Source: Candidatus Helarchaeota archaeon (GTDB lineage Archaea > Asgardarchaeota > Lokiarchaeia > Helarchaeales > RDOG01). Taken from it: 64,000 nucleotides of DNA. Shown here piece after piece: positions 19,620 to 42,305 of the stretch. Where the stretch lies: the NCBI GenBank assembly GCA_019058315.1, contig JAHPZH010000001.1:71938-135937 (forward strand), read 5' to 3'. The first letter of the stretch is position 1, and each line of letters starts with the position of its first letter. Both the position numbers and the translations under genes were made by a program. The notes beneath the pieces were generated by a model. It was given only the letters and a program-made list of their open reading frames with translations. It was not told the origin of the DNA and did not search any database.

Positions 19620-22085
19620 TTGATGAAAAAATGGATAAAAAAAGAGGAAAAGCAAATGAAAATTAAAAATTATTTATTTTTTACTATTATTCTAATTTCT
19701 TGTGTAGCACTTTCAAGTACACTACTCGATTCCCAAGTAACAATTCCAATTGAGACTATTTCAACGATTAAAAAGCAAAATAAATTATTGGATATAAATG
19801 CGATACTTGATAATATTACAGGAGAATGTAATGCAAGAATTTCTAATCTCTATCATTATGAGAATACCACATTTTCCCAATTCAATAATACAGATAATTT
19901 TACTGTAACTTATCCAGCAAATGGATCTTATCCGACAATAGATTTTGGTAATTTGACTCTTTCAAAATTATCCTTATTAACTATAGCAATGACTGATACT
20001 TTTGTGGAGAAACCAGTAGCTAATAACAGTTCAAGGGCAAAAAATGGAACTGAATTTTATAATGCATATCAACTTGCCCAAAATTTTTCTATTAATGAAA
20101 CATCTCAAGTAAGCAATTTCCATTTATATGTAAAATATCGAAATCTTGGAGCAGTCCTTCCTGGTATAGCTGGAATTGTGTTTGCTAATATTTATAGAGA
20201 AGAAGATTTTAATGGAACTGATTTTGAAGGTGACCCAGTAAATACATATGAGTTATACGGAGGTCTAGCCGATGGTGGAGGGGCGTGGCTCGAAGGTTGG
20301 CTACCAATCGAATTCAACAGTCTATTAGTAAAAGGTAATTATTTTCTAGTAACCTATGTTCAAAGTTTGAGTATAATTCTTAGCCCTAATAATAACAGTT
20401 GGCAAATTCAAAATTATTCAATCCCCTTTCAAGATAAAGGAGTAAGTATGTTTCAAAATGGTACTGGACATTGGAATAATATTTCGGAAGATGGGAATGC
20501 AGATTTTTTACTAACATTAGAAATTGCTCCATATATTGATCCGAGAAAATGGAATTTAACTTGTTATGTAGATAATCAAAAACTAGATCTTATTCATTAT
20601 GAAGAGCCAAATCCCCGTTTTCTAAAATTTCCTTGGACAAGTTACGTCGATTATTATCTTCCTTCTATTCCAAACCAAGATATTAATGTGACTTTTACAA
20701 CAAACCAAACTTTAGGTTGGGTAGTAGTTGGTGCTACATATAGATATATAAATTCTGTAGAAGCTAATGGAACTTTTATAGCTAATTTGAAAAGCCGTAA
20801 GTGGGTTATAAATTATACTTCAGTAAATTCGACTGCTGAAGTATTTCCAATATTTACTTTCCCCTCTGATTGGACAATCAACAAATTCTATAATAGATTT
20901 TATCAGGAAATTATAGAATATGGGATTATGTATTCGAGTATTTATAATGAAACACTTAATGGTCTTTATTATCCTGAAACAGGGGATGGGGAGACAACAT
21001 TTAACTTTTCGGCAATATTTACTTCCCATAATTATGTAAGTAGTATTAACCCCCAGCTCCGTTCTGGAGTTAACTTTAAGAACCAATTCAATTTTAAAGA
21101 AGGAGATACAATAAGATTACAAGCTATAATACAAGATTCTATAGAAAATCCCGCCTCGGGTGGAAATTGCAGTTTTTATATATTTAATCCCTCAAATAAT
21201 TCAATATATTTTGAAAATACAACTGCAATTAATGGTATAGCCAACTCGAATAATATATCAACTTCTGGTTGGGATATAGGCGATTATGTTATTGTAACTA
21301 CATGGACAAATGGGTCTGAAATAGGCTTTAGCTCATTTACATTTTCACTACAAGAGGAAAAAGTACCTTTAATTCCACCCCTTTTCGCAACACCAGAACC
21401 TATATGGTTGTATATTATTACTACTGCTTTAGTTGTGTCAATGGTAATGGTGGGAGGTCTAATAGTAAGACGTAAATTACAAGAGAGAAATTGGGAAAAA
21501 TCTCTTCTACACTTATTCATAATGGCAAAGGATGGGAGATCGATGTATAATTATCCATTTGGGCTTGTAACTAAAGATCCAACTTTAATTTCTGGTATGC
21601 TAACCGCTATGACAAGTTTTGTGAAAGAAACTGTCGGAAGTAAAAAACAATTAAGAACAATTGATCAACAAGATAAAAAAGTTATACTTGGGCATGGGGC
21701 TGTATCCACCGTAGCTGTGTTTGCTGAAAAGGATATATCTATTATCCATAATAAAACTGATGAGTTTCTAGAAGCATTTGAAAGAACGTATGGCTTCAAG
21801 ATAGAACACTGGGATGGATCAACTGAGGTGTTTAAAGGAGTAAATAAATTAGTGGAGAAATATTTTCCAGTTTCTGTTGAATCCAAAATTATCCAAGGCG
21901 TAAGTAGAGAGTTACTTGAATTGAAAGAACGTATAATGTCTACTAATGATCCTAATGAAATTCTTTCTTTACTACAAGAATTCGCAAGCTTAGCTGAAAG
22001 ATACCAAGATGTCATAAGAGAACATTTTAATAAAGAATATGGAGAAATTTTAAAAATTGCTAATAAAAAAATTCAAAATCAGTAA
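19620..22085 (+). CDS. single-pass receptor-like glycoprotein with a longin/roadblock-like cytoplasmic domain (paralog A)
   Basis: 821 aa. N-terminal anchor, a ~570-aa sequon-rich ectodomain, TM (IWLYIITTALVVSMVMVGGLIV), then a ~200-aa cytoplasmic domain (LLHLFIMAKDGRSMYNYPFG...DPTLISGMLTAMTSFVKE...) with a bb-a-bbb-a pattern. Confidence 0.75.
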   Translation: MMKKWIKKEEKQMKIKNYLFFTIILISCVALSSTLLDSQVTIPIETISTIKKQNKLLDINAILDNITGECNARISNLYHYENTTFSQFNNTDNFTVTYPANGSYPTIDFGNLTLSKLSLLTIAMTDTFVEKPVANNSSRAKNGTEFYNAYQLAQNFSINETSQVSNFHLYVKYRNLGAVLPGIAGIVFANIYREEDFNGTDFEGDPVNTYELYGGLADGGGAWLEGWLPIEFNSLLVKGNYFLVTYVQSLSIILSPNNNSWQIQNYSIPFQDKGVSMFQNGTGHWNNISEDGNADFLLTLEIAPYIDPRKWNLTCYVDNQKLDLIHYEEPNPRFLKFPWTSYVDYYLPSIPNQDINVTFTTNQTLGWVVVGATYRYINSVEANGTFIANLKSRKWVINYTSVNSTAEVFPIFTFPSDWTINKFYNRFYQEIIEYGIMYSSIYNETLNGLYYPETGDGETTFNFSAIFTSHNYVSSINPQLRSGVNFKNQFNFKEGDTIRLQAIIQDSIENPASGGNCSFYIFNPSNNSIYFENTTAINGIANSNNISTSGWDIGDYVIVTTWTNGSEIGFSSFTFSLQEEKVPLIPPLFATPEPIWLYIITTALVVSMVMVGGLIVRRKLQERNWEKSLLHLFIMAKDGRSMYNYPFGLVTKDPTLISGMLTAMTSFVKETVGSKKQLRTIDQQDKKVILGHGAVSTVAVFAEKDISIIHNKTDEFLEAFERTYGFKIEHWDGSTEVFKGVNKLVEKYFPVSVESKIIQGVSRELLELKERIMSTNDPNEILSLLQEFASLAERYQDVIREHFNKEYGEILKIANKKIQNQ

Positions 22086-22115: not shown

Positions 22116-24515
22116 ATGAGAAGAAAAAAAACCGTTTTTTGCTTTATATTATCAATATTTTTTGTTATTTGTTTCAATTCATTATTGATTTCACAAACTA
22201 TTGACTTATCTAAATTTGTTCGAATATCTGATAACCCTAATCAATTTTTAAAAATTAGCGCAATTCTCAATAACATTACAGGCAATTGCACTTCAGAAAT
22301 CTATAATTTACATGGTTTTGAAAATAATTCAATAGAAGGGTTCAACAATCCTATGAATTATACAAAAATGGTACCAGCTAATATAACGTTACCTAATTTT
22401 AACCATAGTTTAACTACTTCAAAATTTGAGTTTACTATAACCGCTATGACAGATCCTTTTACAACTTATAGCATAGCAAACGATACCTCAAATGCCATGA
22501 ATGCAACTGATGAAAATAATGCATACATGCTTGCTCAAAACTTTTCTATAGTTGAGCCTTCTCATATTGATTATATCTATCTATATCTAAATTATACAAG
22601 TTGGCTCCCTATAATTTGGGCTGGAATTGTAACTGTGTATATTTATAAAAGTGATCTGATTACCCCTGTTAATGAATATGGTATGTCAATTTTCTTACCA
22701 AATAGTGGAGGTTTTGGAAATTGGACCGCAGAATGGTTCAATGTTAGATTTAACAATATCTTACCAATAGGAAACTATTATTTAGTAATGTATACATCAA
22801 GTACAAGTATTAGGGCACCAAATAATAATAGCTGGCAAATTCAAAATTATACAAACCCAGATGATGATAAAGGGGCAACCTTAACAAAATATGGCAATGG
22901 TTCATGGATCCCAATTGAAAATGATGGTCATGCGGATTTCTTATTAATGATGAATAAATCTACATATGTTAGTCCTTATGATGTTAATCTATCTATTTAT
23001 GTTAATAATGATAAATTAAATTTAAATCATTATTATGAAGAAAATCCAACCTTTCTCAGATTTCCTTGGATAAGTAATGGGATATACTACATCCCTGCTG
23101 TTCCTACTAGTGATATCAACATAACAATTACGGTTGATCAAATTTTAGGATGGGGAGCAGTTATTACTACTACTAGATATGTCAAATTCTTACCAGCAGC
23201 CGGGAATTTTACAGCTTCGTTGGATAGTAGAAAGTGGTCTGTAAATTACACATCAATAAATTCTACTACTGCATTCCTTCCAGTATTTATCTTTCCTATA
23301 GACTGGTCTATTGATAAATTTTATAATAGATTTGGTCAGGAAGTAATAGAATATGGGATAATGTACTCGAAAGTTTATAATAAAACTTATAACGGTATTT
23401 ATTATCCAGAAACTGGAGATGGCGAAACTACATATAATTTTAGTGCCGAATTCACTTCTCTCAATTATGTAAGTAATATATTTCCTCAAATTTATAATGG
23501 AACTGGTTTCCAGACTCAATTCAGTTTTTATAAAGGAGATACAATAAGATTCCAAGCAAATATTCAAGATTCAGAAGGTAATTCGGCTATAAATGGAAAT
23601 TGTACATTTTATCTTTATAATCCCTCAAATAATCTAGAATATTCAGAAAATATTACGGTCGTGAATGGTATTGCTAATTCAGATAATCTAACTAATTTAC
23701 CTAGAGGCGAATATTTAATAATTGTAACTTGGACAAATGGCTCTCAAGTTGGTTTTAATTCATTCACATTTACAATTTCAACAGAAAAAGAATTTTATCC
23801 CTTTATCCCCCCTGCTCAACCAGAACCGATATGGTTATATATTATAACTACAGCTTTAATAGTTCTAACCGTCATGATTGGAGGTCTGATAGCTAGACGT
23901 AAATTACAAGAAAGGAACTGGGAAAAATCCTTACTGCATTTATTTATAATGAATAAAGATGGTCGAGCAATGTATGATTATCCTTTTGGGATAGAGCAAA
24001 AAGATCCAACTCTAATATCTGGTATGCTTACAGCTTTAACAAGTTTTATAAAAGAAACTGTTGGGAGTAAAAAGCAATTGAAAACGATTGATCAAGAAGA
24101 TAAAAAAGTTATACTTGGACATGGAACTTATAGCACTGTTGCAGTTTTTGCAGAAAAAGATCTACCTGTTATACATGAAAAGGCTGCTGAATTCTTAAAA
24201 ATATTTGAAGATTCTTTTTCATCGAAAATAAAACAATGGGATGGTTCAACCTCAATTTTTAAAGGAGTCAGTAGTATAGTTGAGAAATATTTTCCGATTT
24301 CGGCAGAAGCTAAAATTATTCAAGGCGTTGGGAAAGAACTATTATTATTAAAAGAAAGTATTAATTCGACTTCTGATCCACAAGAAGTAATTTCGTTATT
24401 ACAAAAAGTTACTGGATTAGCCGAAAGATATCAAGAAATTATAAGAGAACATTTTAATAAAGAATACGGCGAAATTTTAAAGATAGCAAATCAAAAAGTA
24501 ATCAAATTAGTCTAA
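22116..24515 (+). CDS. single-pass receptor-like glycoprotein with a longin/roadblock-like cytoplasmic domain (paralog B)
   Basis: 799 aa, collinear with 19620-22085. The ectodomain is moderately conserved. The TM and cytoplasmic domain are highly conserved (RRKLQERNWEKSLLHLFIM-KDGR-MY-YPFG...EHFNKEYGEILKIAN). Confidence 0.75.
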   Translation: MRRKKTVFCFILSIFFVICFNSLLISQTIDLSKFVRISDNPNQFLKISAILNNITGNCTSEIYNLHGFENNSIEGFNNPMNYTKMVPANITLPNFNHSLTTSKFEFTITAMTDPFTTYSIANDTSNAMNATDENNAYMLAQNFSIVEPSHIDYIYLYLNYTSWLPIIWAGIVTVYIYKSDLITPVNEYGMSIFLPNSGGFGNWTAEWFNVRFNNILPIGNYYLVMYTSSTSIRAPNNNSWQIQNYTNPDDDKGATLTKYGNGSWIPIENDGHADFLLMMNKSTYVSPYDVNLSIYVNNDKLNLNHYYEENPTFLRFPWISNGIYYIPAVPTSDINITITVDQILGWGAVITTTRYVKFLPAAGNFTASLDSRKWSVNYTSINSTTAFLPVFIFPIDWSIDKFYNRFGQEVIEYGIMYSKVYNKTYNGIYYPETGDGETTYNFSAEFTSLNYVSNIFPQIYNGTGFQTQFSFYKGDTIRFQANIQDSEGNSAINGNCTFYLYNPSNNLEYSENITVVNGIANSDNLTNLPRGEYLIIVTWTNGSQVGFNSFTFTISTEKEFYPFIPPAQPEPIWLYIITTALIVLTVMIGGLIARRKLQERNWEKSLLHLFIMNKDGRAMYDYPFGIEQKDPTLISGMLTALTSFIKETVGSKKQLKTIDQEDKKVILGHGTYSTVAVFAEKDLPVIHEKAAEFLKIFEDSFSSKIKQWDGSTSIFKGVSSIVEKYFPISAEAKIIQGVGKELLLLKESINSTSDPQEVISLLQKVTGLAERYQEIIREHFNKEYGEILKIANQKVIKLV

Positions 24516-28935: not shown

Positions 28936-29628
28936 TCATACCTTTAAATCAAAAAACAAGTCAATTCCATATTTATCATAAAGCTCATCAATCAGGTAAA
29001 TCAATGGGTTTAAATGACTTTTATAACGATCCCAAACAAGATGAGTTGTTTTTTCTCTTCTTTGTGCAAAATGTAAGAATCCCTCGCTATCAAAACATGG
29101 ATCTTTTGGTCGGGGCGTTACTTGAATCGTAGGAGGAACATCTGGATATTCTGCATTGAATAAAATTTTCGAAACTCTTACCACACCATCTCTCCATTTA
29201 GATGATACATAAATACCCTTTTCCGGGCGTTTTTTATCTATGTATTTCCATTCACTACCGTTTATTTCCACTATGTATTTTAGATGGGTTTTAAACAACT
29301 CAGTTCCACTTTTAATTTTACTAGAAATACTCCCACCTATGGGTTCCGGAATCCAGTATATCTTATCTGTGTCTTGTGCTATTTCCCCTATCGTGTTGCG
29401 AAGAGATATTGGTACTTTTCGACCTTGTGTAATATAGTAAAGTTTTATTGTTAGCATGTTAATTCCGACGTTTCTAACATTGCCATATCCTAAATTTAAA
29501 ACGTCTAAGATTCGATCATTATATTTCCATAATAATCTACTGGCAACATCCCTGATAATCTCATCTTCTTGAGATTCAACATAATCTGTGGTCCCAATAA
29601 GTGGATTAACCCAAGTTATTTCTTTCAA
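28936..29628 (-). CDS. two-domain protein: N-terminal ~99-aa domain ending in Gly-Gly, fused to a UBC/E2-like (or RWD-like) domain
   Basis: 230 aa. The C-terminal ILFNAEYPDVPPTIQVTPRPKDPCFDSEGFLHF resembles the E2 core (YPxxPP...HPN...C) and has a conserved Cys178. The N-domain ends ...YWIPEPIGG(98-99). It is a paralog of the 30585-31295 pair. Confidence 0.5.
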   Translation of the reverse strand: MKEITWVNPLIGTTDYVESQEDEIIRDVASRLLWKYNDRILDVLNLGYGNVRNVGINMLTIKLYYITQGRKVPISLRNTIGEIAQDTDKIYWIPEPIGGSISSKIKSGTELFKTHLKYIVEINGSEWKYIDKKRPEKGIYVSSKWRDGVVRVSKILFNAEYPDVPPTIQVTPRPKDPCFDSEGFLHFAQRREKTTHLVWDRYKSHLNPLIYLIDELYDKYGIDLFFDLKV

Positions 29629-29700
29629 TGTGTTTCCGTCTTTAATTTATTATCAATTATTTAGAAATTAAAATTAATATTTATAAATTAGGTTTTTAAT

Positions 29701-30468
29701 TTGATGAAAAGATTTTTCTTTGGTCCTGTTCTTTCTCGTAGATTGGGTTTTTCTTTAGGGATTGATATATTACCCGATAAAAAGACTTGTACTTTTGACT
29801 GTCTTTACTGTGAAATAGGAAAAACTCGACGAGTTACCTCCCCAAAAACCCGTTCTCCTTTCCTAATAGAAAATAAAAAGAATTTTGAATTACAATTAAG
29901 AAATATCTTATCTCAAGATATATTAATCGATACATTAACATTTGCAGGATATTCGGGTGAGGCAACATTAAATAGTGAATTAAATACATTTTTAAACATT
30001 ACAAAATCTGTAAGATCTGACCTGCATAAAGAAAATATCCCAATATCCATTTTGACTAATTCCTCAACAATTAATTTTCCTGAAATTAGAAAAATATTAA
30101 TGAATTTTGATAATATAGTTGCGAAATTAGATGTTGGAAATCAAGCTTCTTTTATGAAGGTGAATCGTCCACATTTTTTAGTTCCACAAATTTCTGATAT
30201 TATAAATGGTTTAAAGCAATTAAGGGAGGAGCTTGATAAGAATCGACTCGTTATTCAGACTCTTTTGTTTAGTGAAAATAATGATAGAAAAAACATTGAT
30301 TCATTAATTGAAGCTTACAATATTATCAATCCAAATAAAATTCAACTTTACTCGATTGCCCGTCCACCCGCATATGCCGTAAAAAAAATAGATGGGCTTC
30401 AATTGGAACAGATAAAAAAGAATATGCAAGATGTATTAAAAACCAATATTAAAATTGAAACTTATTAA
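29701..30468 (+). CDS. radical SAM protein (small stand-alone type, function unknown)
   Basis: FGPVLSRRLGFSLGIDILPDKKTCTFDCLYCEIG contains CxxxCxxC. 255 aa. TTG at 29701 or ATG at 29704. Confidence 0.75.
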   Translation: MMKRFFFGPVLSRRLGFSLGIDILPDKKTCTFDCLYCEIGKTRRVTSPKTRSPFLIENKKNFELQLRNILSQDILIDTLTFAGYSGEATLNSELNTFLNITKSVRSDLHKENIPISILTNSSTINFPEIRKILMNFDNIVAKLDVGNQASFMKVNRPHFLVPQISDIINGLKQLREELDKNRLVIQTLLFSENNDRKNIDSLIEAYNIINPNKIQLYSIARPPAYAVKKIDGLQLEQIKKNMQDVLKTNIKIETY

Positions 30469-30584
30469 AAAGATATTTGTAGTATTGATTTTAAAATTTC
30501 ATTAAACAAGAAAAACCAGAAAAATAAAAAAACATAATTTCTTTTATCCATTAATAAATTAACTTATATTATGGTGCAAAATAG

Positions 30585-30893
30585 ATGCCAGAAATGACAT
30601 ATGTCTGCCCGCAAATAGGTAGTACAGATTATTTAGATTATGAAGAAGATACGACCTTCGAAGATCAAATAAATGAACTAAAAGAGAAATATTTACGAGA
30701 TATTCTTGATTACGTTCAGCAATTTCGAAATATACGTCAAAATATAGGATTAGATCAAATTACTGTAAAGATACACTATATTGATGCTGAAGGTATCAAA
30801 CAAACAATTGGACTTAAAACTTACGTTAAGGCAATGGCTGAACGTCATATTGATAAGATATATTGGGAACCCGAACCCATTGGAGGGCATTAA
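30585..30893 (+). CDS. stand-alone homolog of the N-terminal domain of 28936-29628, ending ...PEPIGGH
   Basis: 102 aa, collinear with residues 1-99 of the fused paralog. The Gly-Gly at residues 100-101 is followed by one His and TAA (30891-30893). Confidence 0.55.
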   Translation: MPEMTYVCPQIGSTDYLDYEEDTTFEDQINELKEKYLRDILDYVQQFRNIRQNIGLDQITVKIHYIDAEGIKQTIGLKTYVKAMAERHIDKIYWEPEPIGGH

Positions 30894-30932
30894 ACCAAAC
30901 TTTTAATATAAGGGTATATCTAGAGGAAAAAA

Positions 30933-31295
30933 ATGCAGCAAACTTCTAAACAAATCTTTGCAAGTCATATTTACGATTTGACAGTTCGACCCGGTTATTA
31001 TCGCTCTACATGGAAACTAATTAATAAAAAAATACCCTTAAAAGGAGCTTTCGGTCATTTTATGGGCAAGGATTTTCGAGTAATTGTAATAAAAATCTTA
31101 TTTAATTCAAAATATCCCGAAAATCCTCCAAAAATTATTAGCACTCCTCCTATCCGCGATGTTTGTTGGGATAATAAGGGTGTGTTACATTGGGCTAGAT
31201 ACGGGGGAGAGTTTGTATGGAGTAAATATAAAGATCACTCCAATCCATTAATTTATGTCGCAGATGAAATTACTGAAAAATATAAAACCATGTAA
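30933..31295 (+). CDS. stand-alone UBC/E2-like (RWD-like) domain protein
   Basis: 120 aa. ILFNSKYPENPPKIISTPPIRDVCWDNKGVLHW aligns with the C-terminal domain of 28936-29628, including the Cys. It has its own GAGG motif about 8 nt upstream of the ATG. Confidence 0.55.
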   Translation: MQQTSKQIFASHIYDLTVRPGYYRSTWKLINKKIPLKGAFGHFMGKDFRVIVIKILFNSKYPENPPKIISTPPIRDVCWDNKGVLHWARYGGEFVWSKYKDHSNPLIYVADEITEKYKTM

Positions 31296-31319
31296 AAAAA
31301 AAATTGATTTTTAGATCTA

Positions 31320-32912
31320 TTACTTTTTAATTATTATTGCCACTAACACTAGAATTACTATCGCCATAGCACCAATTATTATCAAGAGAATAAGAGGATC
31401 AATTGGAAAACCCGCACCTGTCGGTATAGGTATAAAATTATCCATAGGTTCTGTAGACACTAATGAAACTTTTTGTGCATATATATCATAATCACTTAAG
31501 CTTCTATTATCCTGCCACGTTATGATAGCAACTCCAGAACTAACGTAAATAATCTCATGATTTTCTTGCAAACCATATTCTGTACATACTGGCAGACCCT
31601 TACCAACATATTGCAAAATACCATTTTTATCGAGCATTTGTGCATAGATTGATCCATTAGCATCTTCTTCTTTATCTATCCAAGAGATAAATGAATTTCC
31701 TGAGGAGTCGCAGCAAATCCTAGACTGTTGTTGATCACTGGGTGAAGTACAAACAGGGGTACCATTATTTCTCCATAATGTGGTGCCTATTGGGTTAATT
31801 TTTTGAGTATAGATATCCTCCTCATAAATATTTCGTAAATCCTGCCATGTAATAATTGCATTTCCCTCACTATCACAGCAAATTTTTGGATAGAATTGGC
31901 TATATTCTGCTGTACAAATTGGTGTGCCATTGAGAGTCCAATAAACAGTACCAGTTGAGTCGATTTTTTGTGCATATATATCTGTATATGTACCGTTTCT
32001 ATTATCCACCCAAGTGATAATTGCATTACCAGAACTATCACAGCAAATATCAGGCCAATATTGACTGTCAGTTGCATTACAAATTACAGTACCATTGTCT
32101 TGCAATTGTGAATGACCTGTAGAATTAATAAATTGACAATAGATATCGTTATCTGATGTTGTCATATTTCTATAGTCTTGCCAAGTAATAATTGCGTTTC
32201 CTGCACCATAAACACTAATTTTTGGAAATGTTTGGATGTTTATAGCATTGCAAATTATTTTTCCGTTAGTTGTCCATTGGACAACTCCACTCGAATTAAT
32301 TCTCTGGGCATGGATATTAGATGTTGCAAATTCATCATTTATCCATGTAAGAATCGCACCGCCTAAATTATCGCTGCAAATTTCTATCCTTGATTCATCA
32401 TTAGGCAAACCAGTAATTTGCACACCGTTGGCAGTCCATTGCGTAATCCCGTTTGCGTCCACTCTTTGAGCTTTAATATTTTGAGTATCTTCCCATGCGA
32501 TGATTGCCCCCCCAGAACCATCAGAACATATCTGGGGAAGAGTTTGAGAACCAGGAGAGTTACAAATTAATGTGCCGTTAACATCCCATAATGGATTCCC
32601 ATTTGAATCGATTCTTTGAACATAAATACTAGAAATGTCTCTGGAATCCGCCCAAGTAATAATTGCACCACCAGTTCCATCACTGCATATTTCAGGATTA
32701 TATTGGTCTTGTGGCGTTTGTACACATACAGGTGTACCATTAGCTGCCCATTGCGTACTTAAACCATTAGCCTTGAGTTTAGATTTCTCATCAATTTTTA
32801 AAAGTAAGACATTTTGATTGCTAAACCCTGTATATGAATTTATAGCTAAAATGGAAAACATCAAGATTGGGATTAAAATTAAAAACCTTTTCTTCATTTT
32901 TAACAAATCCAA
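31320..32912 (-). CDS. secreted 8-repeat (propeller-like) protein with a C-terminal TM/KK sorting-signal-like tail
   Basis: Signal-like N-terminus. Eight repeats of NGT-IC-----Q--P-IC-D--G-AIITW-D-R----IY-Q-I---G. The C-terminus is ...TGAGFPIDPLILLIIIGAMAIVILVLVAIIIKK (motif, TM, short basic end). Confidence 0.7.
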   Translation of the reverse strand: MDLLKMKKRFLILIPILMFSILAINSYTGFSNQNVLLLKIDEKSKLKANGLSTQWAANGTPVCVQTPQDQYNPEICSDGTGGAIITWADSRDISSIYVQRIDSNGNPLWDVNGTLICNSPGSQTLPQICSDGSGGAIIAWEDTQNIKAQRVDANGITQWTANGVQITGLPNDESRIEICSDNLGGAILTWINDEFATSNIHAQRINSSGVVQWTTNGKIICNAINIQTFPKISVYGAGNAIITWQDYRNMTTSDNDIYCQFINSTGHSQLQDNGTVICNATDSQYWPDICCDSSGNAIITWVDNRNGTYTDIYAQKIDSTGTVYWTLNGTPICTAEYSQFYPKICCDSEGNAIITWQDLRNIYEEDIYTQKINPIGTTLWRNNGTPVCTSPSDQQQSRICCDSSGNSFISWIDKEEDANGSIYAQMLDKNGILQYVGKGLPVCTEYGLQENHEIIYVSSGVAIITWQDNRSLSDYDIYAQKVSLVSTEPMDNFIPIPTGAGFPIDPLILLIIIGAMAIVILVLVAIIIKK

Positions 32913-33012
32913 TTTTTATTAAAATATATCAAATATACTGAGGTTATAACATATAAATTGGAGTAATAGTTCATAGAGAAATAGAATAATTAAGTTAGAA
33001 AGTCGTGTAGAA

Positions 33013-34086
33013 ATGCGAGTAATTATAGATTCGTCGGTAATTGAATCATGTAAGCAAACAATTCAAGAATGTTATGGTGAAAAAGCGTTTAAAGAAGTAG
33101 GGGGGTATATTTTAGGAATGTTTGACGGCGAAAATTTCCAAGTTAAATCCCTTTATCTTGATAAATATGCTGAATCGACTTCTATCAGAATTAAACTAAG
33201 CGTTGATGCATTCCATGAAGTTGAGGAAATACTTTCCCAATCTCCTGAAATGATGTATATTGGGACATGGCATGTTCATCCTGGGACAGATAAACCCGCA
33301 TACTCAAATGTTGATGTTTCAACTCTATTTTTAGAACGGGTAATTATAGACACAGATAATCCTGAAAGTTTGAAATGCCCAAAGATTCATATAATTTTTA
33401 ATAATTCTCTAACTGAATATAGTTGTTATACTATGGATATATTTTTTAATTTTTTATGCGAACCTCTTGATTCATCTGTTGCCAAAAATTTAGTTGAAGC
33501 TGAATTGCTTGAAATTGGGCTAGATGCCCTTACGGAATCTAAAACCTTGCTAAAACTAGAAACTCTTGAAAGTTATATCAATTTACAAAAAAATATCGAA
33601 GAAGTGTATAATAATCTCGATTTAATTTCTGACCAAATCAATTTTGCACTTGACTTTTTTAATGAACTTGAATGGTATAATAAAGTTGAAAATAAAATCG
33701 AAAAAATAATTAAGAATGAGATTAAAAATGGAGAAAGAATTGGAGTAATCTCTTCTGAAAACGAGAAAAAAATCGAAAGCTTGAAATATAGACCTAAGAA
33801 TATAAAAAATTCATATACAGATGGATCTTTAGTAGGTTTTTGGGTATTATTTCCATACGAAAGTATCAGCGATATGTTTTTGAAAATTTTTTATGCTAAT
33901 TTCTTCAAAAAAATTGAGACTGAACCTGGAGATGTCTTCTTATTCTTCCTAGTTCAAAAAATTAAGGAAGAAATCATGATTAAACCGTTTTTTTTAAATT
34001 TCACATCATTTGAAGGAATATCATATATAGAATTAGAAATGACTTTGATTGAGGATGACAATGAAAATAATGTTTCAGAATCCTGA
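33013..34086 (+). CDS. JAB/MPN+ (JAMM) metalloprotease with a long helical C-terminal extension
   Basis: E28 (KEVGGYILG) plus H87-x-H89-x8-S98-x2-D101 (WHVHPGTDKPAYSNVD) is the JAMM motif. About 230 extra C-terminal residues. Confidence 0.8.
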   Translation: MRVIIDSSVIESCKQTIQECYGEKAFKEVGGYILGMFDGENFQVKSLYLDKYAESTSIRIKLSVDAFHEVEEILSQSPEMMYIGTWHVHPGTDKPAYSNVDVSTLFLERVIIDTDNPESLKCPKIHIIFNNSLTEYSCYTMDIFFNFLCEPLDSSVAKNLVEAELLEIGLDALTESKTLLKLETLESYINLQKNIEEVYNNLDLISDQINFALDFFNELEWYNKVENKIEKIIKNEIKNGERIGVISSENEKKIESLKYRPKNIKNSYTDGSLVGFWVLFPYESISDMFLKIFYANFFKKIETEPGDVFLFFLVQKIKEEIMIKPFFLNFTSFEGISYIELEMTLIEDDNENNVSES

Positions 34087-35140
34087 TACGGGTGAAACAA
34101 TATATATCGAGGATGAGGAGCTTCTTATCAGAGATATTGCCAATAAAATAATGAAAGAATACAATCTAGAAAAACCACCAATCTTCTTCACCCTTATGAA
34201 AGAAGACCCAGTATCAGAAACTTATCTAGAAGAAGATGATAAATTAAAAACAATTAATGAAGAAAAATTGGATGTAAAGACACCAATATGGTGGCGATCG
34301 TCAGAAATTGATCTAGATTTAATTTATAAACTTCGAACAGAACGCTATGATAGATCGGGTTATGAGCTAGAAAAAATCGGAAAAACCAAGGTATTAATTG
34401 CAGGTGTGGGATTATTAGGAGCGGATATTGCGTTTGATTGCGCAGTTTTAGGAATAAAGGACCTTACAATAATTGATTATGGGTCTGTAGATTGGTTTAA
34501 TATCTATCGACAAAGTCTCTATTCCAAAAAAGATGTATTTAAATCGAAAGTTGAAGTGGCAAAAGAAAATCTCGAGGATATGGGGGGTGTAAATGTTAAA
34601 TCATTAAAAATTGAGATTCCAAGTTTTATTTATCTGCCAGAAGATAAAAGTATAATACAAAATTCCATTTTAAAAATTGAGCCTGAAGTTAAAAAATGTG
34701 ATATAATAATTACTGCTCTTGATACATTCAGCGCTAGAATGATAATGCAAACTTTAGCTTTAGCAAATGATAAAATCCTTATTAATACGGCGGCTGGTCT
34801 AGTAGGTGGGGTAGTTCAATTAGTGAGAATTAAGCAAAATGATCCTTGCTTGGCATGTGGTATTTATTTTGATAGAAATCAAGATGTGGGTGCGTGCACT
34901 TTGGCATCGTTTGGTACTCCTAAAATCATATCTGGAATTACAATGGAAATTTTGACAAATCTGATTGAAGAAAGAGAAATCAAATATAACCATTTTAAAT
35001 ATATTCCCCAAACTTACCAAATAGAACAAAGTAATTTTATAAAAGGCAAAGAGTTCTGTGATTTTTGCGATAGGGAGAAAGGAATTATATTTAAATATAA
35101 AAATGGAGAAAAAAAAGCCCTAATTGATTGGTTATATTGA
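34049..35140 (+). CDS. E1-like (ThiF/MoeB/UBA family) adenylyltransferase with an N-terminal beta-grasp-like domain
   Basis: Nucleotide-binding VLIAGVGLLGADIA, IDYGSVDWFNIYRQ, Zn-type CLACG and CDFCD pairs, and candidate catalytic Cys GACTLASFG. The N-terminal ~80 aa (KIMFQNPDTGETIYIEDEELLIRDIANKIMKEYNL...) has a bb-a-bb pattern. It overlaps the JAB gene by 38 nt (26 nt if it starts at 34061). Confidence 0.75.
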   Translation: MRMTMKIMFQNPDTGETIYIEDEELLIRDIANKIMKEYNLEKPPIFFTLMKEDPVSETYLEEDDKLKTINEEKLDVKTPIWWRSSEIDLDLIYKLRTERYDRSGYELEKIGKTKVLIAGVGLLGADIAFDCAVLGIKDLTIIDYGSVDWFNIYRQSLYSKKDVFKSKVEVAKENLEDMGGVNVKSLKIEIPSFIYLPEDKSIIQNSILKIEPEVKKCDIIITALDTFSARMIMQTLALANDKILINTAAGLVGGVVQLVRIKQNDPCLACGIYFDRNQDVGACTLASFGTPKIISGITMEILTNLIEEREIKYNHFKYIPQTYQIEQSNFIKGKEFCDFCDREKGIIFKYKNGEKKALIDWLY

Positions 35141-35277: not shown

Positions 35278-36123
35278 ATGGTTGAAATTACATTAACCCC
35301 TAAAAAAGATGCATTCTCTTCAAAAATTCCTCTTGAAGCAGAAATTATTACAACAGATAATCTCGCTGGAAAATCTATTGAGGAAATAAAAAAACTGCCA
35401 GTATGGAAAGGAAATCGTGAAAAAAATCTAGGAGAATTTTTCGATGTAAAAGGAGGAAAAGCAGATGCTCCAGCAGATATAAAAATAATCATCGATGGTG
35501 ATATTCCGATGGTAAAAGGGATTGGAACAAAGATGACTGCTGGTGAAATAGTTGTCAAAGGTAAAGCAGGAATGCACACAGCAGATCTATTAAATGGTGG
35601 AAAAATCACAGTGGAAGGAGACGTAGATGACTTCTGCGGCTCTGAGATGAAAAAGGGAGAATTTATTGTGAATGGAAATGCAGGAAATTACTTTATCGCA
35701 GCAGCTAGGGGTAATTGGCAAGGTATGACTGGTGGAAAAGTTGTAGTTAATGGCAGTGTTGGTTCTGAAATGGCTGCTTGGGTTCGTGGTAAGACGACCC
35801 GGATAGAAATCAATGGAAATGTTAAAGGTTTTGCGGCTGTTCATATGCACGGAGGATTGCTTATCATAAATGGAGATGTTTTAGATAGATTAGGAGCTGA
35901 AATGGCAAGGGGAATTATTATAGTTAATGGAAAATTGGAATCTATTCTACCATCATTTAAATATTCAGGGGAAGTGCAAGAGATAGAAGTGAATGAAACT
36001 GAAAAAATTACTGGAAAGTATTTACAATTCAATGGTGATTACGCCCAATTAGGTGTAAAATCAAAATATTTTGGTAGAATTTTCCTCGCTGCGGATAAGA
36101 ATAAACATTTAATTCCAAAATAA
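35278..36123 (+). CDS. FwdC/FmdC-like GXGXG beta-helix protein (formylmethanofuran dehydrogenase subunit C / GltB C-terminal domain family)
   Basis: MVEITLTPKK...PLEAEIITTDNLAGKSIEEIKKLPVWKGNREKNLGEFFDVKG matches FwdC N-termini and is followed by repeated G-x-G turns. No other fwd genes are adjacent. Confidence 0.65.
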   Translation: MVEITLTPKKDAFSSKIPLEAEIITTDNLAGKSIEEIKKLPVWKGNREKNLGEFFDVKGGKADAPADIKIIIDGDIPMVKGIGTKMTAGEIVVKGKAGMHTADLLNGGKITVEGDVDDFCGSEMKKGEFIVNGNAGNYFIAAARGNWQGMTGGKVVVNGSVGSEMAAWVRGKTTRIEINGNVKGFAAVHMHGGLLIINGDVLDRLGAEMARGIIIVNGKLESILPSFKYSGEVQEIEVNETEKITGKYLQFNGDYAQLGVKSKYFGRIFLAADKNKHLIPK

Positions 36124-36208: not shown

Positions 36209-37375
36209 ATGCCAAAACCTGAAAATTGGATACTTATAAAGGTCCACGCTAATACAAAATTAGATATTCCAAAGACAAAAATTCCACATCATAAAACTTG
36301 CGGGTTTCTTTCAAGAAGATTAAAAAATTTGTTAATGGATTCATTTGCATATGCATTTATTTCAGCAATAAATGAACCATATTTTAAAGTAGCAATAGGA
36401 AAATCTGATGAAGCTTTTGAAAAAAGGTTTTTAAATGTAATCAAGCGAACCTTTTTGAAAGAGCTAGTATTAGAGGTCTTTAGAAAGGGTGGTTTGGGAT
36501 ATGGTAAAAAAGGATACTTAGAACCACTTCCTTATTCAAAGCCCTACTGGGAGTATGACTTCGTAAATGCTAAAAGATTCGATGTTGATGGTAATCTAAA
36601 GGGTTTTATTGATGTAAAAGTTATTTATATTAATTACTCTTCTGAAAAAAACGTTACAATTGAAGAATTAGACACCACAAAAATAAAAAGATCGAAAAAA
36701 GCTTCAAAAGATGCTCCAGATATATCGCATCCTTTAGGAATATTGCTTGAAGCACCATGGCGTCATTATTATAAACTAATTGAACAAACTAAAAGAAAGA
36801 ATGGTGACAAATTAGAGGTTCCATTCGAAATTCTATTCGTTTTAGCACCTTGGTTTGATCAAACAGTTGAAGGTGAAATTTTAGATTTATTAGAAGAATA
36901 TGTGCACCTTGATCATTCTAAAAAATCATTACCTATTCCTTCACAAGTACCTAAATTAATCGAGAGATATTTCCCTCTTGTTGAAGAAAGACCAGCGAGT
37001 TCCGATTGGATTTTGGAAAACTGGAATAAAATTTATGATGTTATTGGTTATGAGGCCGAGAGATCTATTAAAGATTTAGAAGGATTTTGGTTATGGGTTT
37101 TGGGTGTTGTCGACAAAGGAAAAGCAAAAAAATTCGTGAATGTATACTACGATGATCAAATAATGATGAACATTGAAGGAAAAGATACTGCGATCTGGAG
37201 CTCTGTGGTTCCCCCACCATATCCGCGAATTTATTCTTCTTATCTTAAAAAGAAAGAAGCTGGAGAAGACGTATCTCCTCCTGATATCGATCCGGATCAT
37301 CCAGATTATAATTTGAATAACCATGCAATCGATGTTTTTTCAGATGATGTAAAACCAATAACAGATTATATTTAG
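36209..37375 (+). CDS. hypothetical protein
   Basis: 388-aa ORF with no recognisable motif. Confidence 0.5.
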   Translation: MPKPENWILIKVHANTKLDIPKTKIPHHKTCGFLSRRLKNLLMDSFAYAFISAINEPYFKVAIGKSDEAFEKRFLNVIKRTFLKELVLEVFRKGGLGYGKKGYLEPLPYSKPYWEYDFVNAKRFDVDGNLKGFIDVKVIYINYSSEKNVTIEELDTTKIKRSKKASKDAPDISHPLGILLEAPWRHYYKLIEQTKRKNGDKLEVPFEILFVLAPWFDQTVEGEILDLLEEYVHLDHSKKSLPIPSQVPKLIERYFPLVEERPASSDWILENWNKIYDVIGYEAERSIKDLEGFWLWVLGVVDKGKAKKFVNVYYDDQIMMNIEGKDTAIWSSVVPPPYPRIYSSYLKKKEAGEDVSPPDIDPDHPDYNLNNHAIDVFSDDVKPITDYI

Positions 37376-38560: not shown

Positions 38561-40063
38561 TTGAAAAGTTATGACGTAATTATCATTCATCCACCAAGAG
38601 TAATGGAACCAGATTATGGTAAGCACACAAAATTTGTTCGAAGTACATATATTTTTATTCCAATGGGTGTTTTTGCAATTGCTGACTTTCTTGAGAGGGA
38701 AGGGTTTGGAGTTAAAATTATTAATTATCCTTTAGAGCAATATTTAAACCGGAAATGGTCTTTGGCTGAGTTTCTTAAAAAAATTAATTTTAAGGTATGT
38801 GGAATAGATTTACATTGGATCCACAACGCACATGGAGTCATTGAAACTGCAAAGATTGTGAAAGAGGTAAATCCTAATGCTAAAGTGGTTTTCGGAGGTT
38901 TTAGCGCTTCTTATTATCATGATCAATTATTGAAATACTATAAAAATATTGATGCAGTAATTAGAGGAGAAGGTGAAATTCCTCTTTTGAATTACGTTCG
39001 TAATACTAATAAAAATCATGATTTAGATTCTGTGGCTAATTTATCTTATCGAAATGCCTCTAATCACATCAAAATTAATCCTATTTCTTATGTAGCAAAA
39101 TCATTGAATGAATTCAATTTTACTAATGTAAATCTCTTAGAGAATGCAAAAAAATATTTCGAGTATAGTAGAAGAATTATGGGAATTTCTCTTAATCTAC
39201 CCATAGCTAGAGGATGTCCCTTCAATTGTCCTTGTTGTGCAGGAGGGCAAAGGGCTCAACAAAAATTATCGGGACGGGATAAGGTAATTTTCAGAAACCC
39301 AGAAAAAGTAATAGAAGATATCCACAATATCTTGGATAAATATAACATCCCTAGCGTTTTTTTTGGACATGGTACCTATCCCACAAATTTGAAATATTGG
39401 AAAAATCTTTTTAAATTGATTCGTAAGGAAAAGTTCGATATTAGCGGTGATTTGGAAATATGGAGGCTGCCATATCCCAAAGATATGTGGGAATTGTTTT
39501 ATAAGACCTTCACTCGTAGACATTCATCGATTAGTATTTCTCCTCGAACTATGTCTACAAATGTACATAATAAGGTTGCAAAAATCTGTGATCCTACTTT
39601 TCAATTTCCTAAAAATCAAATTCAAGATTTAATAAAAAATGCAAATTTATTCAGAATGACTCTAAGAATATGGTTAACAATAGGTTATCCATTTCAAACC
39701 CGTAGAGATGTTCTTAAAGATTATTTATTTACAATAAAATGTCTCATAAAATATGGAAGTTCCAATTTCAAACCAATTACTATTATGAGTGAACCATATT
39801 ATATTTTTCCTGGTTCACCTGCTCATGAGGATCCCAAAAGTTTTGGAATCAAATTAGATTATAATTCCTTTCCACAAATAGTTGATGCATTTAAAAGAAT
39901 AAAAGTAACATATACAAATAGAGTTTTAAACTATGAAACTAAGTATTTTTCGAAAACCACAAATCTTATAATAAATGATCTATTATTTTTAACTGCTGCA
40001 CCCATGTTTTTAACGAGAGGTGCGAAATATCCCAAAGAAAAAGATGTAACTATTTTTAAGTAA
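38561..40063 (+). CDS. B12-binding-domain radical SAM enzyme (class B)
   Basis: TTG start. The N-terminal Rossmann-like YDVIIIHPP...GVFAIADFLEREGFGVKIIN is typical of the class B cobalamin domain. The CxxxCxxC is ARGCPFNCPCC. Confidence 0.7.
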   Translation: MKSYDVIIIHPPRVMEPDYGKHTKFVRSTYIFIPMGVFAIADFLEREGFGVKIINYPLEQYLNRKWSLAEFLKKINFKVCGIDLHWIHNAHGVIETAKIVKEVNPNAKVVFGGFSASYYHDQLLKYYKNIDAVIRGEGEIPLLNYVRNTNKNHDLDSVANLSYRNASNHIKINPISYVAKSLNEFNFTNVNLLENAKKYFEYSRRIMGISLNLPIARGCPFNCPCCAGGQRAQQKLSGRDKVIFRNPEKVIEDIHNILDKYNIPSVFFGHGTYPTNLKYWKNLFKLIRKEKFDISGDLEIWRLPYPKDMWELFYKTFTRRHSSISISPRTMSTNVHNKVAKICDPTFQFPKNQIQDLIKNANLFRMTLRIWLTIGYPFQTRRDVLKDYLFTIKCLIKYGSSNFKPITIMSEPYYIFPGSPAHEDPKSFGIKLDYNSFPQIVDAFKRIKVTYTNRVLNYETKYFSKTTNLIINDLLFLTAAPMFLTRGAKYPKEKDVTIFK

Positions 40064-40901: not shown

Positions 40902-42305
40902 TTGGATTGGAAACCCGAAATAAATGAATTATATGAAAAAGTAACAAGTCAAGTACCAGAAGCATTTCGAGATGCTGTAAAACCAATGCTTAGGCAAGCT
41001 GCAGAGAAAGCTGCGATACTCCGTAATTCTGCCTATGTAAGCGAAGATGATTTACTGTCATCTCTATTTGATATTACACCAGAGGCATTTAAACCAACGG
41101 TTGTATCAGATTTGGAAAATTTAGGAATTGCTACAGGAAAATATATTGAACTATCAGAGATAAGAAAAGACTATTCACGCACTTGGGATGAGATTAGTGG
41201 AGCATTTCTACCAGGGGTGTATCATTTTACTATGTTTTTAACTGATAGATGTAATCAGAAATGTATGCATTGTGCTGCTGAAAATCCTATACATCGTCCC
41301 GAACTCTCAACTGAACAATGGATTCAAATTATAGAAAATGTTGAACAGACCCTTAGAAAACGTGGTAGAAGGGGTTGCTATATATGGTTTGGTGGTGATC
41401 CAACTTTACGTAAAGATTTGAAAGATCTTATAAAATACTGTGGGGAAAAAGGTTATTACCAAGCAGTTTCAACTAATGGAATGCTATTTACAGAAGAACT
41501 TGCAAAACTTTGTGCAGAAGTTAAAATGTCACATGTTTTTATTAGCTTTGATAGTGTTTATCCTGAAAGAGCTGCAAAGATAAGAGGAGTTCCAAAAGCT
41601 TACGAGGCAGCAGAAAAAGCTATTAAATTAGCACTGAAATATGGCCATTTTGTAATTTGTACAGCAACAGTACAAAAAACCAATTTTGACGAACTTGATG
41701 AAATAAAACAACTCATGGAGAGTTGGGGTGTAATCCCTTATTTCAGAGCCGTTATAAAACAGAGAAGTGCTGCAGTAAACTGGGATGAGATTGGACTAAG
41801 TCATGAGGAATATAAAAAGTTCTATGAATTTAAATATAAACATGTTGTTGAGGCTATTAGAAAAGGTGAGGGTTCATCTCTCAATAAATTCTATACTTAT
41901 GATATGGTTCCTTTTATGGAATGTCCAATAAATATAAAAGAACTTACTGCACTTGAATGGGGAGTTGGTTGTCAAGCATGTCGGTCAGTTTCGGGTATAG
42001 ATATAAATGGAGATTTTTTTCCATGTGATTATCCTTCAGAATTAACTCTTGGAAACGTATTAAAACAACCCTTCGATGAAATAATGGAATCTCAGCTTTT
42101 TAAGGATATAAGAGATAGAAAAAGAATCGGCAAATGCGCATCATGTCACCATCTCGAATTGTGTGGAGGAGGTTGTCGAGTACATGCAGAATGTGAGACT
42201 GGAGATTTTTTTGAATCATTTCCGTATTGTTGGCATGAAATGGATCATAAACATGAAGAAATTGCTGAAGTTCCTAAAGAAAAAGAGATACCCGCAAGTA
42301 AATAA
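40902..42305 (+). CDS. radical SAM/SPASM enzyme with an N-terminal PCP_red-like module (paralog 1; NirJ/AhbC/AhbD-like core)
   Basis: TTG start preceded by GGTGAG. CxxxCxxC is DRCNQKCMHC. The C-terminal auxiliary-cluster Cys pattern is GVGCQAC...FPCDY...GKCASCHHLELCGGGCRVHAEC. The N-terminal 80 aa is shared with three neighbouring proteins. Confidence 0.8.
   Translation: MDWKPEINELYEKVTSQVPEAFRDAVKPMLRQAAEKAAILRNSAYVSEDDLLSSLFDITPEAFKPTVVSDLENLGIATGKYIELSEIRKDYSRTWDEISGAFLPGVYHFTMFLTDRCNQKCMHCAAENPIHRPELSTEQWIQIIENVEQTLRKRGRRGCYIWFGGDPTLRKDLKDLIKYCGEKGYYQAVSTNGMLFTEELAKLCAEVKMSHVFISFDSVYPERAAKIRGVPKAYEAAEKAIKLALKYGHFVICTATVQKTNFDELDEIKQLMESWGVIPYFRAVIKQRSAAVNWDEIGLSHEEYKKFYEFKYKHVVEAIRKGEGSSLNKFYTYDMVPFMECPINIKELTALEWGVGCQACRSVSGIDINGDFFPCDYPSELTLGNVLKQPFDEIMESQLFKDIRDRKRIGKCASCHHLELCGGGCRVHAECETGDFFESFPYCWHEMDHKHEEIAEVPKEKEIPASK

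Follow-up and report, generated by a model that had tools for sequence, protein, structure and literature searches.

The stretch of DNA analysed here, which we refer to as the window, comprises 64,000 nucleotides (nt) from a Candidatus Helarchaeota archaeon (GCA_019058315.1, JAHPZH010000001.1, positions 71,938–135,937 of the forward strand) and has a G+C content of ~31%. Between positions 28936 and 35140 it contains a locus for conjugation by a ubiquitin-like protein (Ubl), as is evident from its gene content, from the folds and motifs of the encoded proteins, and from the linkage of the same genes across genomes. A JAB peptidase, an E1 and proteins of E2 fold are all encoded there, which agrees with the type of locus put forward in a preliminary description of this sequence. 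On balance we favor the view that these genes specify a Ubl-conjugation pathway that is complete in itself and belongs to an uncharacterised family; its chemical steps and targets we infer. Literature searches returned no earlier description of this Ubl/E2-like/JAB/E1 family, and the closest homologs of the locus proteins are found in metagenome-assembled genomes of Candidatus Helarchaeota/Promethearchaeota, that is, of Asgard archaea.

The open reading frames (ORFs) that had been proposed for the JAB peptidase, the E1, the E2-like proteins and a radical SAM enzyme were each confirmed in place. On the minus strand, 28936–29628 encodes a 230-residue precursor in which a Ubl is fused to an E2-like domain, an assignment made with an AlphaFold2 (AF2) model and Foldseek. 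The plus strand carries genes for a free Ubl precursor of 102 residues (30585–30893; ending in EPEPIGG-H and matching the Ubl hidden Markov model (HMM) at E = 2.8e-34), a stand-alone E2-like protein of 120 residues (30933–31295; a fold of the type of UBC domains and ubiquitin E2 variants (UEVs) in its AF2 model), a JAB/JAMM metallopeptidase of 357 residues (33013–34086) and a non-canonical E1 (34049–35140, with a likely start at 34061). The fusion is paralogous to two consecutive genes, as its N-terminal half matches the product of 30585–30893 at 42% identity (E = 5e-22) and its C-terminal half matches the product of 30933–31295 at 41% identity (E = 4e-26), far above chance. These identities and the gene order bear out the earlier view that two paralogs flank the radical SAM gene. 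The accompanying claim that the E2-like paralogs have an N-terminal domain ending in Gly-Gly holds for 28936–29628 and fails for 30933–31295, where the Gly-Gly domain is the product of a separate gene. There the Ubl ORF ends EPIGG-H-stop and is followed by 39 nt that include the ribosome-binding-site-like sequence gaggaaaaaaATG. The split between Ubl and E2-like protein looks like a genuine gene boundary, with no frameshift, and the same split pair is found in other Helarchaeota. None of the locus proteins matched a ubiquitin-family, UQ_con or RING model in Pfam.

The domain ending in Gly-Gly, which had been regarded as a unique N-terminal domain of the E2-like proteins, is the Ubl itself. Within the fusion it occupies residues 1–99 (nt 29332–29628) and terminates in EPIGG. 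In the AF2 model of the whole fusion (predicted local distance difference test (pLDDT) score of 77.6) residues 1–96 are ordered as bb-a-bb-a-b, where b is a strand and a is a helix, which is the beta-grasp arrangement, and the linker formed by residues 99–105, directly after the Gly-Gly, is disordered. In the PDB, Foldseek matched this domain to ubiquitin, SUMO, the RAWUL domain of Ring1B, FERM-F1 domains and Ras-binding domains, with a probability of 1.0 and target-normalised template modelling (TM) scores of 0.6–0.7. Helix 1 is unusually long, sequence similarity to ubiquitin is nil, and Pfam gave no ThiS/MoaD match for the Ubl. A sequence profile of the domain did not find a solved Ubl among PDB sequences, and the assignment of the fold therefore rests on the model, the Gly-Gly terminus and the genomic context together. 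Since the Gly-Gly domain is the Ubl, the statement that the locus has no free ubiquitin gene was mistaken: 30585–30893 encodes a free precursor with a single residue, His, beyond the Gly-Gly, and the fusion holds a second Ubl. The Gly-Gly is essentially invariant across 18 diverse Ubl members, and in the free forms it is followed by unrelated tails (H, L, Y, S, R, KNERR, TSSDE, TLFYETNC and others), a combination of invariant and variable features that is the signature of a trimmed precursor. The terminal His of the free Ubl in the window would likewise need to be removed.

Because Foldseek searches with the whole fusion model were dominated by the Ubl domain, the 120-residue E2-like protein was modelled separately with AF2 from a 26-sequence alignment, which gave a pLDDT of 93.3 and a predicted TM-score (pTM) of 0.86. 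The model consists of helix 1, four strands, a short hairpin and helix 2, and it lacks the two C-terminal helices (helices 3 and 4) of canonical E2s; these helices have also been reported to be missing from BubB, Cap2 and other non-canonical E2s (Ye, Gong, Chambers & Corbett 2024, PMC11601596). All of the best 50 Foldseek matches in the PDB are E2s or UEVs (probability ~1, TM-scores 0.5–0.62, E-values 4e-3 to 2e-2), and they include UEV1, Mms2, Ubc15, UBE2G1/G2, UBE2T and the UEV-like domain of VPS37A. Independently, giant-virus E2s were the top matches in a viral structure library, and a profile of the E2-like family found E2/UEV proteins in 60/60 of the PDB sequence matches listed (best E = 0.0016). 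Pfam gave no UQ_con or Prok-E2 match for the E2-like proteins at E<0.1. An ATG3/ATG10-like identity, considered on account of 'DPC' in place of 'HPC' and of the hairpin after the Cys, was rejected, as neither ATG3, ATG10 nor Cap2 is among the best 50 Foldseek matches.

The motif YP--PP...D-C-D--G-LH that had been pointed out in the two paralogs is real and is conserved across the family. In the fusion, whose E2-like domain spans residues ~106–230 (nt 28939–29313), it is represented by YPDVPP (residues 161–166), C178 and H186, followed by N207-P-L, and in the stand-alone protein by YPENPP (residues 61–66), C78 and H86, followed by N104-P-L; N-P-L before helix 2 is, with F-x2-H in helix 1, one of the family-specific invariants. 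From YPxxPP onward the family consensus [DN]-P-C-[FW]-x3-G-x-L-H aligns ungapped on H-P-N-I-x3-G-x-[IV]-C of canonical E2s. The conserved Cys, which is C178 of the fusion and C78 of the stand-alone protein, falls on the Asn of the HPN motif, eight positions upstream of the canonical Cys site; contrary to what had been supposed, Cys178 does not correspond to the catalytic Cys of E2s. The canonical catalytic-Cys position is occupied by His in all Helarchaeota members and by D, N, K, S, G, C or M elsewhere. The displaced Cys is present in 54/57 E2-like family proteins, and in ~95% of the main copies from archaea and bacteria. Those without it are the JAB-fused family proteins P0035 and P0039, the family protein P0047, and degenerate tandem copies in bacterial HD-CE proteins. 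Because the Cys is lost precisely in accessory or duplicated copies, its distribution is the one expected of a catalytic residue, and we consider the conserved Cys probably functional and likely catalytic.

The JAB peptidase has the full JAMM set (E28, H87, H89, S98 and D101) and matches JAB models clearly in PADLOC (1.6e-10) and weakly in Pfam (Prok-JAB, 0.011). Its catalytic domain spans residues 1–~145, and a family-specific C-terminal domain occupies residues ~230–330. The overlap of its gene with that of the E1, seen previously, was confirmed. The listed E1 ORF begins with TTG at 34049 and overlaps the JAB gene by 38 nt; because orthologs begin MK[IV]MFQNPD, the true start is probably the ATG at 34061, which would give an overlap of 26 nt. 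In L004 and L009, two orthologous Helarchaeota loci among those compared (which carry L numbers), the overlap is just 1–4 nt. The JAB peptidase and E1 of the window are colinear with the halves of a 711-residue bacterial JAB-E1 fusion, including the JAB C-terminal and E1 N-terminal domains, and ~270 extra residues, among them a Ubl-like domain, lie between the JAB and E1 domains.

The E1 is a protein of 359–363 residues with a single adenylation domain (Pfam ThiF, 3.3e-31), and is probably homodimeric. Its nucleotide loop (G119–G124), Arg finger and zinc motifs (C267xxC270 and C337xxC340) are intact, and its key residues include R154, D225 and a crossover-loop C283-T. Six archaeal and bacterial E1s have in common the AGxGLLG loop, the R-Q motif, the Asp of LD(S/T)xSxR and the CxxC zinc motif, and across all six D279-x-G281-x-C283-T284 in the crossover loop is invariant, with no conserved Tyr in the loop. 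Among PDB sequences the E1 family profile matched the adenylation domain of ATG7 best (4.5e-26, 95 bits), followed by weaker matches (<=76 bits) to UBA7 (2e-20), UBA5 (6e-20), MoeB (1.4e-19) and ThiF (1.7e-17), and ATG7 was likewise closest to the window E1 on its own and to the distant member in L006. The residue aligned with C283 in Atg7 is the Cys of 'MCTVTRPG', which we take to be the catalytic Cys of that enzyme (Cys507 in yeast). The ATG7 matches span the adenylation domain only (query residues 94–307), the N-terminal domain of ATG7 being without a counterpart. Because the NCBIfam ThiF model (adenyl_thiF, 2.5e-22) scores above the Apg7 model, 'ATG7-like' here denotes the closest solved relative and does not assert orthology. 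No rhodanese domain was found in the E1. What the E1 has at its N terminus (residues ~5–95) is related to the Ubl of its own locus, as indicated by BLASTP (41% identity over 34 residues, E = 7e-6), by profile–profile alignment with hhalign (probability 89%, E = 2e-6, 39 columns) and by the finding that the Ubl and E1 N-domain HMMs are each other's best non-self match among the 429 ORFs of the window. The suggestion that a beta-grasp-like domain is fused to the E1 is thereby upheld.

When 1.84 billion representative proteins were searched exhaustively with an HMM, the E2-like family amounted to just 39 clusters, most of them metagenome singletons, with fused (220–260 residues), split and longer forms, of which the fused ones are common. 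Homologs of the Ubl-E2-like fusion were confined to Helarchaeota and rare metagenome sequences, a close-relative probe at the Helarchaeota level found three Helarchaeota-type loci among GTDB species representatives, and viral contigs yielded no relatives. The fusion gene of L004 and L009 is divergent from a series in the order radical SAM, Ubl, E2-like, JAB and E1. In 5/5 of the contexts examined from outside Helarchaeota, a Ubl-E2-like gene is directly followed by JAB and E1: as separate genes in L005 (G+C 66%), and as a JAB-E1 fusion in L012 (G+C 61%, on an 11.3-Mb contig), L006 (G+C 47%), L019/L020 (G+C 32%) and L021 (G+C 31%). The JAB-E1 fusion proteins are 636–711 residues long, and in P0039 Ubl, E2-like domain and JAB are joined in a single chain. 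The preliminary description had staked its reading on two points, the fold of the E2-like domain and the co-occurrence of the E2-like genes with the JAB-E1 pair, and both came out in its favor: AF2, Foldseek and the family alignment give a UBC/UEV fold with a conserved Cys, and the co-occurrence is found across distant genomes. Helarchaeota also have extra pairs or fusions of Ubl and E2-like protein, often encoded by overlapping genes, in L007 (9694–10372), L011 (7706–8387), L017 (2219–2891) and L001 (10001–10663). As these pairs sit away from any E1, they suggest that one JAB-E1 serves a small family of Ubl/E2-like paralogs in Helarchaeota.

Among known systems, the nearest in layout is Type I Bub (6E.1), which consists of BubAB, BubCD and BubE and in which the JAB domain of BubCD has been shown experimentally to cut BubAB after a conserved Gly (PMC11601596). 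The statement that the locus differs from the prokaryotic operon types overlooked this system, which has the same Ubl-E2 fusion and JAB-E1 layout (PMC11601596). Shared with it are a minimal E2 that carries the Ubl at its N terminus, with a conserved Gly where the two join, a JAB, a single-domain E1 of homodimer type and the lack of an E3, and L006, L012, L019 and L021 have the exact two-gene arrangement of Ubl-E2 followed by a fused JAB-E1, which is represented by two overlapping genes in the window and by adjacent genes in L005. The differences are equally specific. Type I Bub has BubE in every operon, whereas the loci studied here have none: BubE (DUF6527/PF20137) had no match among the neighbors in the window or in the Pfam lists of L004, L005, L006, L009, L012, L019 and L021. 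The E1 of Type I Bub has an invariant catalytic Tyr and no crossover-loop Cys, whereas the E1s here have an invariant Cys (D-x-G-x-C-T); its E2 has an invariant Ser, with His and Asp, at the canonical site, whereas that site is variable here and a Cys is found at the Asn of HPN. The ~270 residues between JAB and E1 and the Asgard host are further differences. Bub-type Pfam matches were not obtained, and no Bub chain is among the listed PDB matches for the E1 or E2-like profile. It is by motifs, by the absence of BubE and by the lack of Bub Pfam matches, rather than by direct sequence comparison, that we set the present system apart from Bub. The system is therefore built on a Bub-like layout but is cysteine-based, and it represents a known kind of pathway and not a new category.

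The individual proteins resemble parts of other pathways. The adenylation domain is closest to that of ATG7 among solved structures, with the Cys-Thr aligned and a single-domain E1 in both, but the N-terminal domain with which ATG7 binds the E2s ATG3 and ATG10 is replaced here by a Ubl-like domain. The E2-like protein is a minimal E2 without the C-terminal helix pair, like ATG10/ATG3 and Cap2, but unlike ATG3, ATG10 and Cap2 it matches canonical E2s and UEVs in Foldseek. With canonical E2s and UEVs (UBE2L3, Mms2/UEV1) it shares the UBC fold, YPxxPP and an active-site loop that aligns ungapped through a conserved Gly; in contrast to canonical E2s, HPN is replaced by [DN]-P-C, the catalytic-Cys site is His or variable, and helices 3 and 4 are missing. 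As in UEVs the canonical Cys is absent, but a ~95%-conserved Cys is found in the same loop. The JAB and E1 match the Cap3 and Cap2 models of Type II CBASS in PADLOC, in the case of Cap2 just over its E1 part, but Type II CBASS has an E2-E1 fusion that acts on a CD-NTase, whereas separate genes and a genuine Ubl are found here, and all the loci lack CD-NTase and SMODS genes. Bil systems (BilABCD) have an E1 with inactive and active adenylation domains and a Cys domain, together with an E2 of canonical type, whereas the E1 here has one adenylation domain; BilC matches in PADLOC were weak for the JABs of relatives (1e-5), and there was no PADLOC match for the Ubl or the E2-like protein.

Three further groups of systems have similar components. 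Bacterial FtsH-ternary conflict systems contain a Ubl+E2 fusion, a JAB, an E1 and a RING E3, with caspase and ClpN partners and a Ubl predicted to be released by the operon-encoded JAB (Kaur et al. 2020, PMC7159879). Genes for a caspase-like peptidase and ClpN lie near L012 and L005, a likeness judged by description, but RING E3, FtsH, vWA-MoxR and EAD domains were not seen in the loci examined. The eukaryote-like ubiquitin operons of Caldiarchaeum and Asgard archaea share the archaeal host and the clustering of a Ubl, an E1, an E2-fold protein and a JAB/Rpn11-type peptidase; they differ in having ubiquitin, a canonical E2, a RING E3 and an E1 Cys domain, none of which is found here. Sulfur-carrier systems of the ThiS/MoaD-ThiF/MoeB type have a ThiS/MoaD carrier, often a rhodanese, and no E2, whereas here an E2-fold partner is universal and neither ThiS/MoaD nor rhodanese is present.

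In the four-step model that we favor, the JAB would first cut after the invariant Gly-Gly, taking the His off the free Ubl and separating the Ubl from the E2-like protein in the fusion, a step with a precedent in the cleavage of BubAB by BubCD, which has been demonstrated (PMC11601596). The ATG7-like, probably homodimeric E1 would then adenylate the exposed Gly and load the Ubl on C283. The N-terminal Ubl-like domain of the E1 may recruit the E2-like protein, in the manner of the ubiquitin-fold domain found in canonical E1s. The Ubl would finally pass to the displaced Cys (C178 or C78) at the HPN-Asn position, beside the His at the old catalytic site, and from there onward to targets without an E3.

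Several observations weigh against this model. The conserved Cys lies off the canonical E2 catalytic position, and the thioester step is thus only predicted; the best structural matches of the E2-like protein include catalytically dead UEVs; and its Foldseek E-values (~4e-3) and TM-scores (0.5–0.6) are modest. The homology between the E1 N-domain and the Ubl covers just ~39 columns, and some Ubl and E2-like genes of Helarchaeota are >8–10 kb from any E1.

A separate question is what such a pathway does. A role in antiviral defense or conflict, comparable to that of Bil, Bub or Type II CBASS, is possible, though doubtful, as an alternative to housekeeping, and would be compatible with the conjugation mechanism. 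Bacterial relatives lie beside HD-CE proteins with E2-like domains, caspase-like peptidases, an NB-ARC STAND protein, transposases and toxin-antitoxin genes; the JAB and E1 match CBASS Cap3/Cap2 and BilC models in PADLOC; and the family is patchy and rare, with a HicAB insertion inside the L017 locus. The neighborhood in Helarchaeota, in contrast, is stable and of metabolic character: it has genes for an FMN reductase, an ABC ATPase, FwdC (formylmethanofuran dehydrogenase subunit C) and an oxidoreductase, and is syntenic in L004 and L009. The lack of matches in viral contigs and the lack of any PADLOC match for the Ubl or E2-like protein also argue against a conflict role. In bacteria the surroundings look conflict-related, and in Helarchaeota stable and metabolic. 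In L005 (8198–9907) and L012 (8345–9919) the gene immediately before the Ubl-E2-like gene encodes an HD-CE (PF24391) protein with two tandem, degenerate, Cys-less E2-like domains at its C terminus, which may be a module for UEV/E2-type pairing or for effector docking. A 424-residue neighbor in L012 (7048–8322) has a Ubl-like domain without Gly-Gly. With such domains in both, duplicated Ubl and E2-like modules can be said to recur across the family.

As to the mechanism, a catalytic E2-like protein has to be weighed against a non-catalytic one. The E2-like protein could be a UEV-like adaptor that chooses targets or holds the Ubl. The E1 would then pass the Ubl straight to targets, as happens in the E2-independent SAMP/UbaA system of archaea, or attach it to the E2-like protein. 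His or a variable residue at the canonical catalytic-Cys position would fit such an adaptor, as would the identity of the best sequence and structure matches (UEV1, Mms2 and the UEV-like domain of VPS37A) and the existence of Cys-less copies in the HD-CE fusions, P0035, P0039 and P0047. We nevertheless regard this alternative as unlikely, because the Cys is kept in ~95% of main copies within the E2-like active-site loop and is lost just in accessory or duplicated ones.

The radical SAM gene (29701–30468, plus strand), which encodes a 255-residue enzyme, lies between the paralogs, in divergent orientation to the fusion gene and ahead of the gene for the free Ubl. The protein has a CxxxCxxC motif (C30xxxC34xxC37) and matches Pfam Radical_SAM at 2.6e-6, just under the gathering score. 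A viperin identity was rejected, with 28 bits against a cutoff of 180 bits and no PDB sequence match. The gene had been thought to be embedded in the system, and this holds within Helarchaeota, where it is syntenic: in L004, L009 and L017/L018 it is found directly upstream of the Ubl/E2-like pair, at identities down to 44%. It is not part of the core, as its family is much broader, extending to Hel-, Loki-, Thor- and Sigynarchaeota and several bacterial phyla, and as none of the five bacterial-type loci contains it; the homolog in a complete Lokiarchaeon genome lies among unrelated genes, unlinked to any Ubl system. A functional link of the radical SAM enzyme to the Ubl system is possible, but we would not count on it. 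Modification of a component or target by the enzyme is conceivable, as is mere synteny. We note that the gene order in L017/L018 is radical SAM, Ubl, E2-like, a HicAB insertion and JAB; the insertion in L017 (7098–7858), a HicA/HicB toxin-antitoxin pair with a 50-residue E2-like fragment that is a pseudogene remnant, is evidence of recent rearrangement inside the locus.

JAB trimming of Gly-Gly-extended sulfur carriers is established. A sulfur-carrier or cofactor pathway, in which the JAB-trimmed Ubl is thiocarboxylated by a ThiF/MoeB-type E1 (as in CysO/Mec+ and QbsE/QbsD) and delivers sulfur to the radical SAM reaction while the E2-like Cys relays a persulfide, could draw on the good scores of the E1 against ThiF/MoeB models (adenyl_thiF, 2.5e-22), on the position of the radical SAM gene, which immediately precedes the Ubl gene in several lineages of Helarchaeota, and on the genes for FwdC and a molybdopterin enzyme within the window, but it is very improbable given that the radical SAM gene is missing from the five bacterial-type loci and its family occurs without a Ubl system in Loki-, Thor- and Sigynarchaeota, that the Ubl has no ThiS/MoaD match in Pfam and the E1 no rhodanese, that a UBC-fold partner fused to the carrier is a universal feature of the family, that the E1 is nearer ATG7 than MoeB/ThiF among solved structures, and that the bacterial contexts resemble conflict islands.

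The one gene within the cluster that lies outside the system is 31320–32912 on the minus strand, which encodes a 530-residue surface-repeat protein with repeat- and lipoprotein-type matches only. The protein has an N-terminal signal or transmembrane segment, many ~45-residue repeats (C-x-D/S-G-x-G-G-A-I-I-T-W...) and a C-terminal transmembrane anchor; it is secreted or membrane-anchored, and its gene is a lineage-specific insertion that separates the E2-like gene from JAB in this genome alone. That a surface-protein gene interrupts the cluster had been recognised already, and the loci L004 and L009 agree, as they are without it and the E2-like gene there is directly followed by JAB.

Elsewhere in the window we observed the following. 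Anaerobic C1 and redox genes are located around the locus at 35278–36123, 38561–40063, 40902–42305 and 58422–60665, and encode FwdC (4e-71), a B12-binding radical SAM protein, a radical SAM-SPASM protein and a molybdopterin oxidoreductase; the synteny of FwdC with the locus is retained in L004 and L009. A 388-residue protein without a family match is encoded at 36209–37375 on the plus strand, and its counterparts in L004 and L009 (389 and 388 residues) adjoin FwdC as well. On the minus strand, a 1476-residue ORF (13048–17478) that matches ENCP4 (putative type 4B encapsulin shell, 4e-16) and DUF7743 probably encodes a large secreted or cell-surface protein. Two plus-strand genes (19620–22085 and 22116–24515) encode proteins of ~800 residues that are rich in N-x-S/T sequons and have no Pfam match. 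The second of these proteins has a transmembrane segment followed by a ~200-residue cytoplasmic tail, the start of which (LLHLFIMNKDGRAMYDYPF...) resembles Roadblock/LC7-type domains by eye.

If the mechanism that we favor is true, the family would represent a third chemical solution among prokaryotic Ubl pathways, with the Cys moved to the HPN-Asn position, in contrast to Bil and CBASS, which have a Cys at the canonical E2 site, and to Bub, which uses Tyr and Ser oxyesters. The occurrence of fused and split Ubl-E2 forms in one genome is a natural experiment on JAB processing, and as a compact set of four proteins, all of <360 residues, the system is suited to reconstitution in vitro. An E1 with a built-in copy of the fold of its own Ubl suggests how E2-recruiting ubiquitin-fold domains arise. 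It is a speculative and rather improbable idea that this pathway of Asgard archaea and a few bacteria, with its Ubl, minimal E2 and ATG7-like E1, is nearer than any other surviving system to the ancestor from which the eukaryotic ATG12/ATG8 machinery arose, and that its relocated E2 Cys, paired with a His, is an active-site arrangement not seen before. An ATG7-like E1 acting on a true Ubl in Asgard archaea would, if true, bear on the origin of the eukaryotic autophagy-type conjugation machinery.

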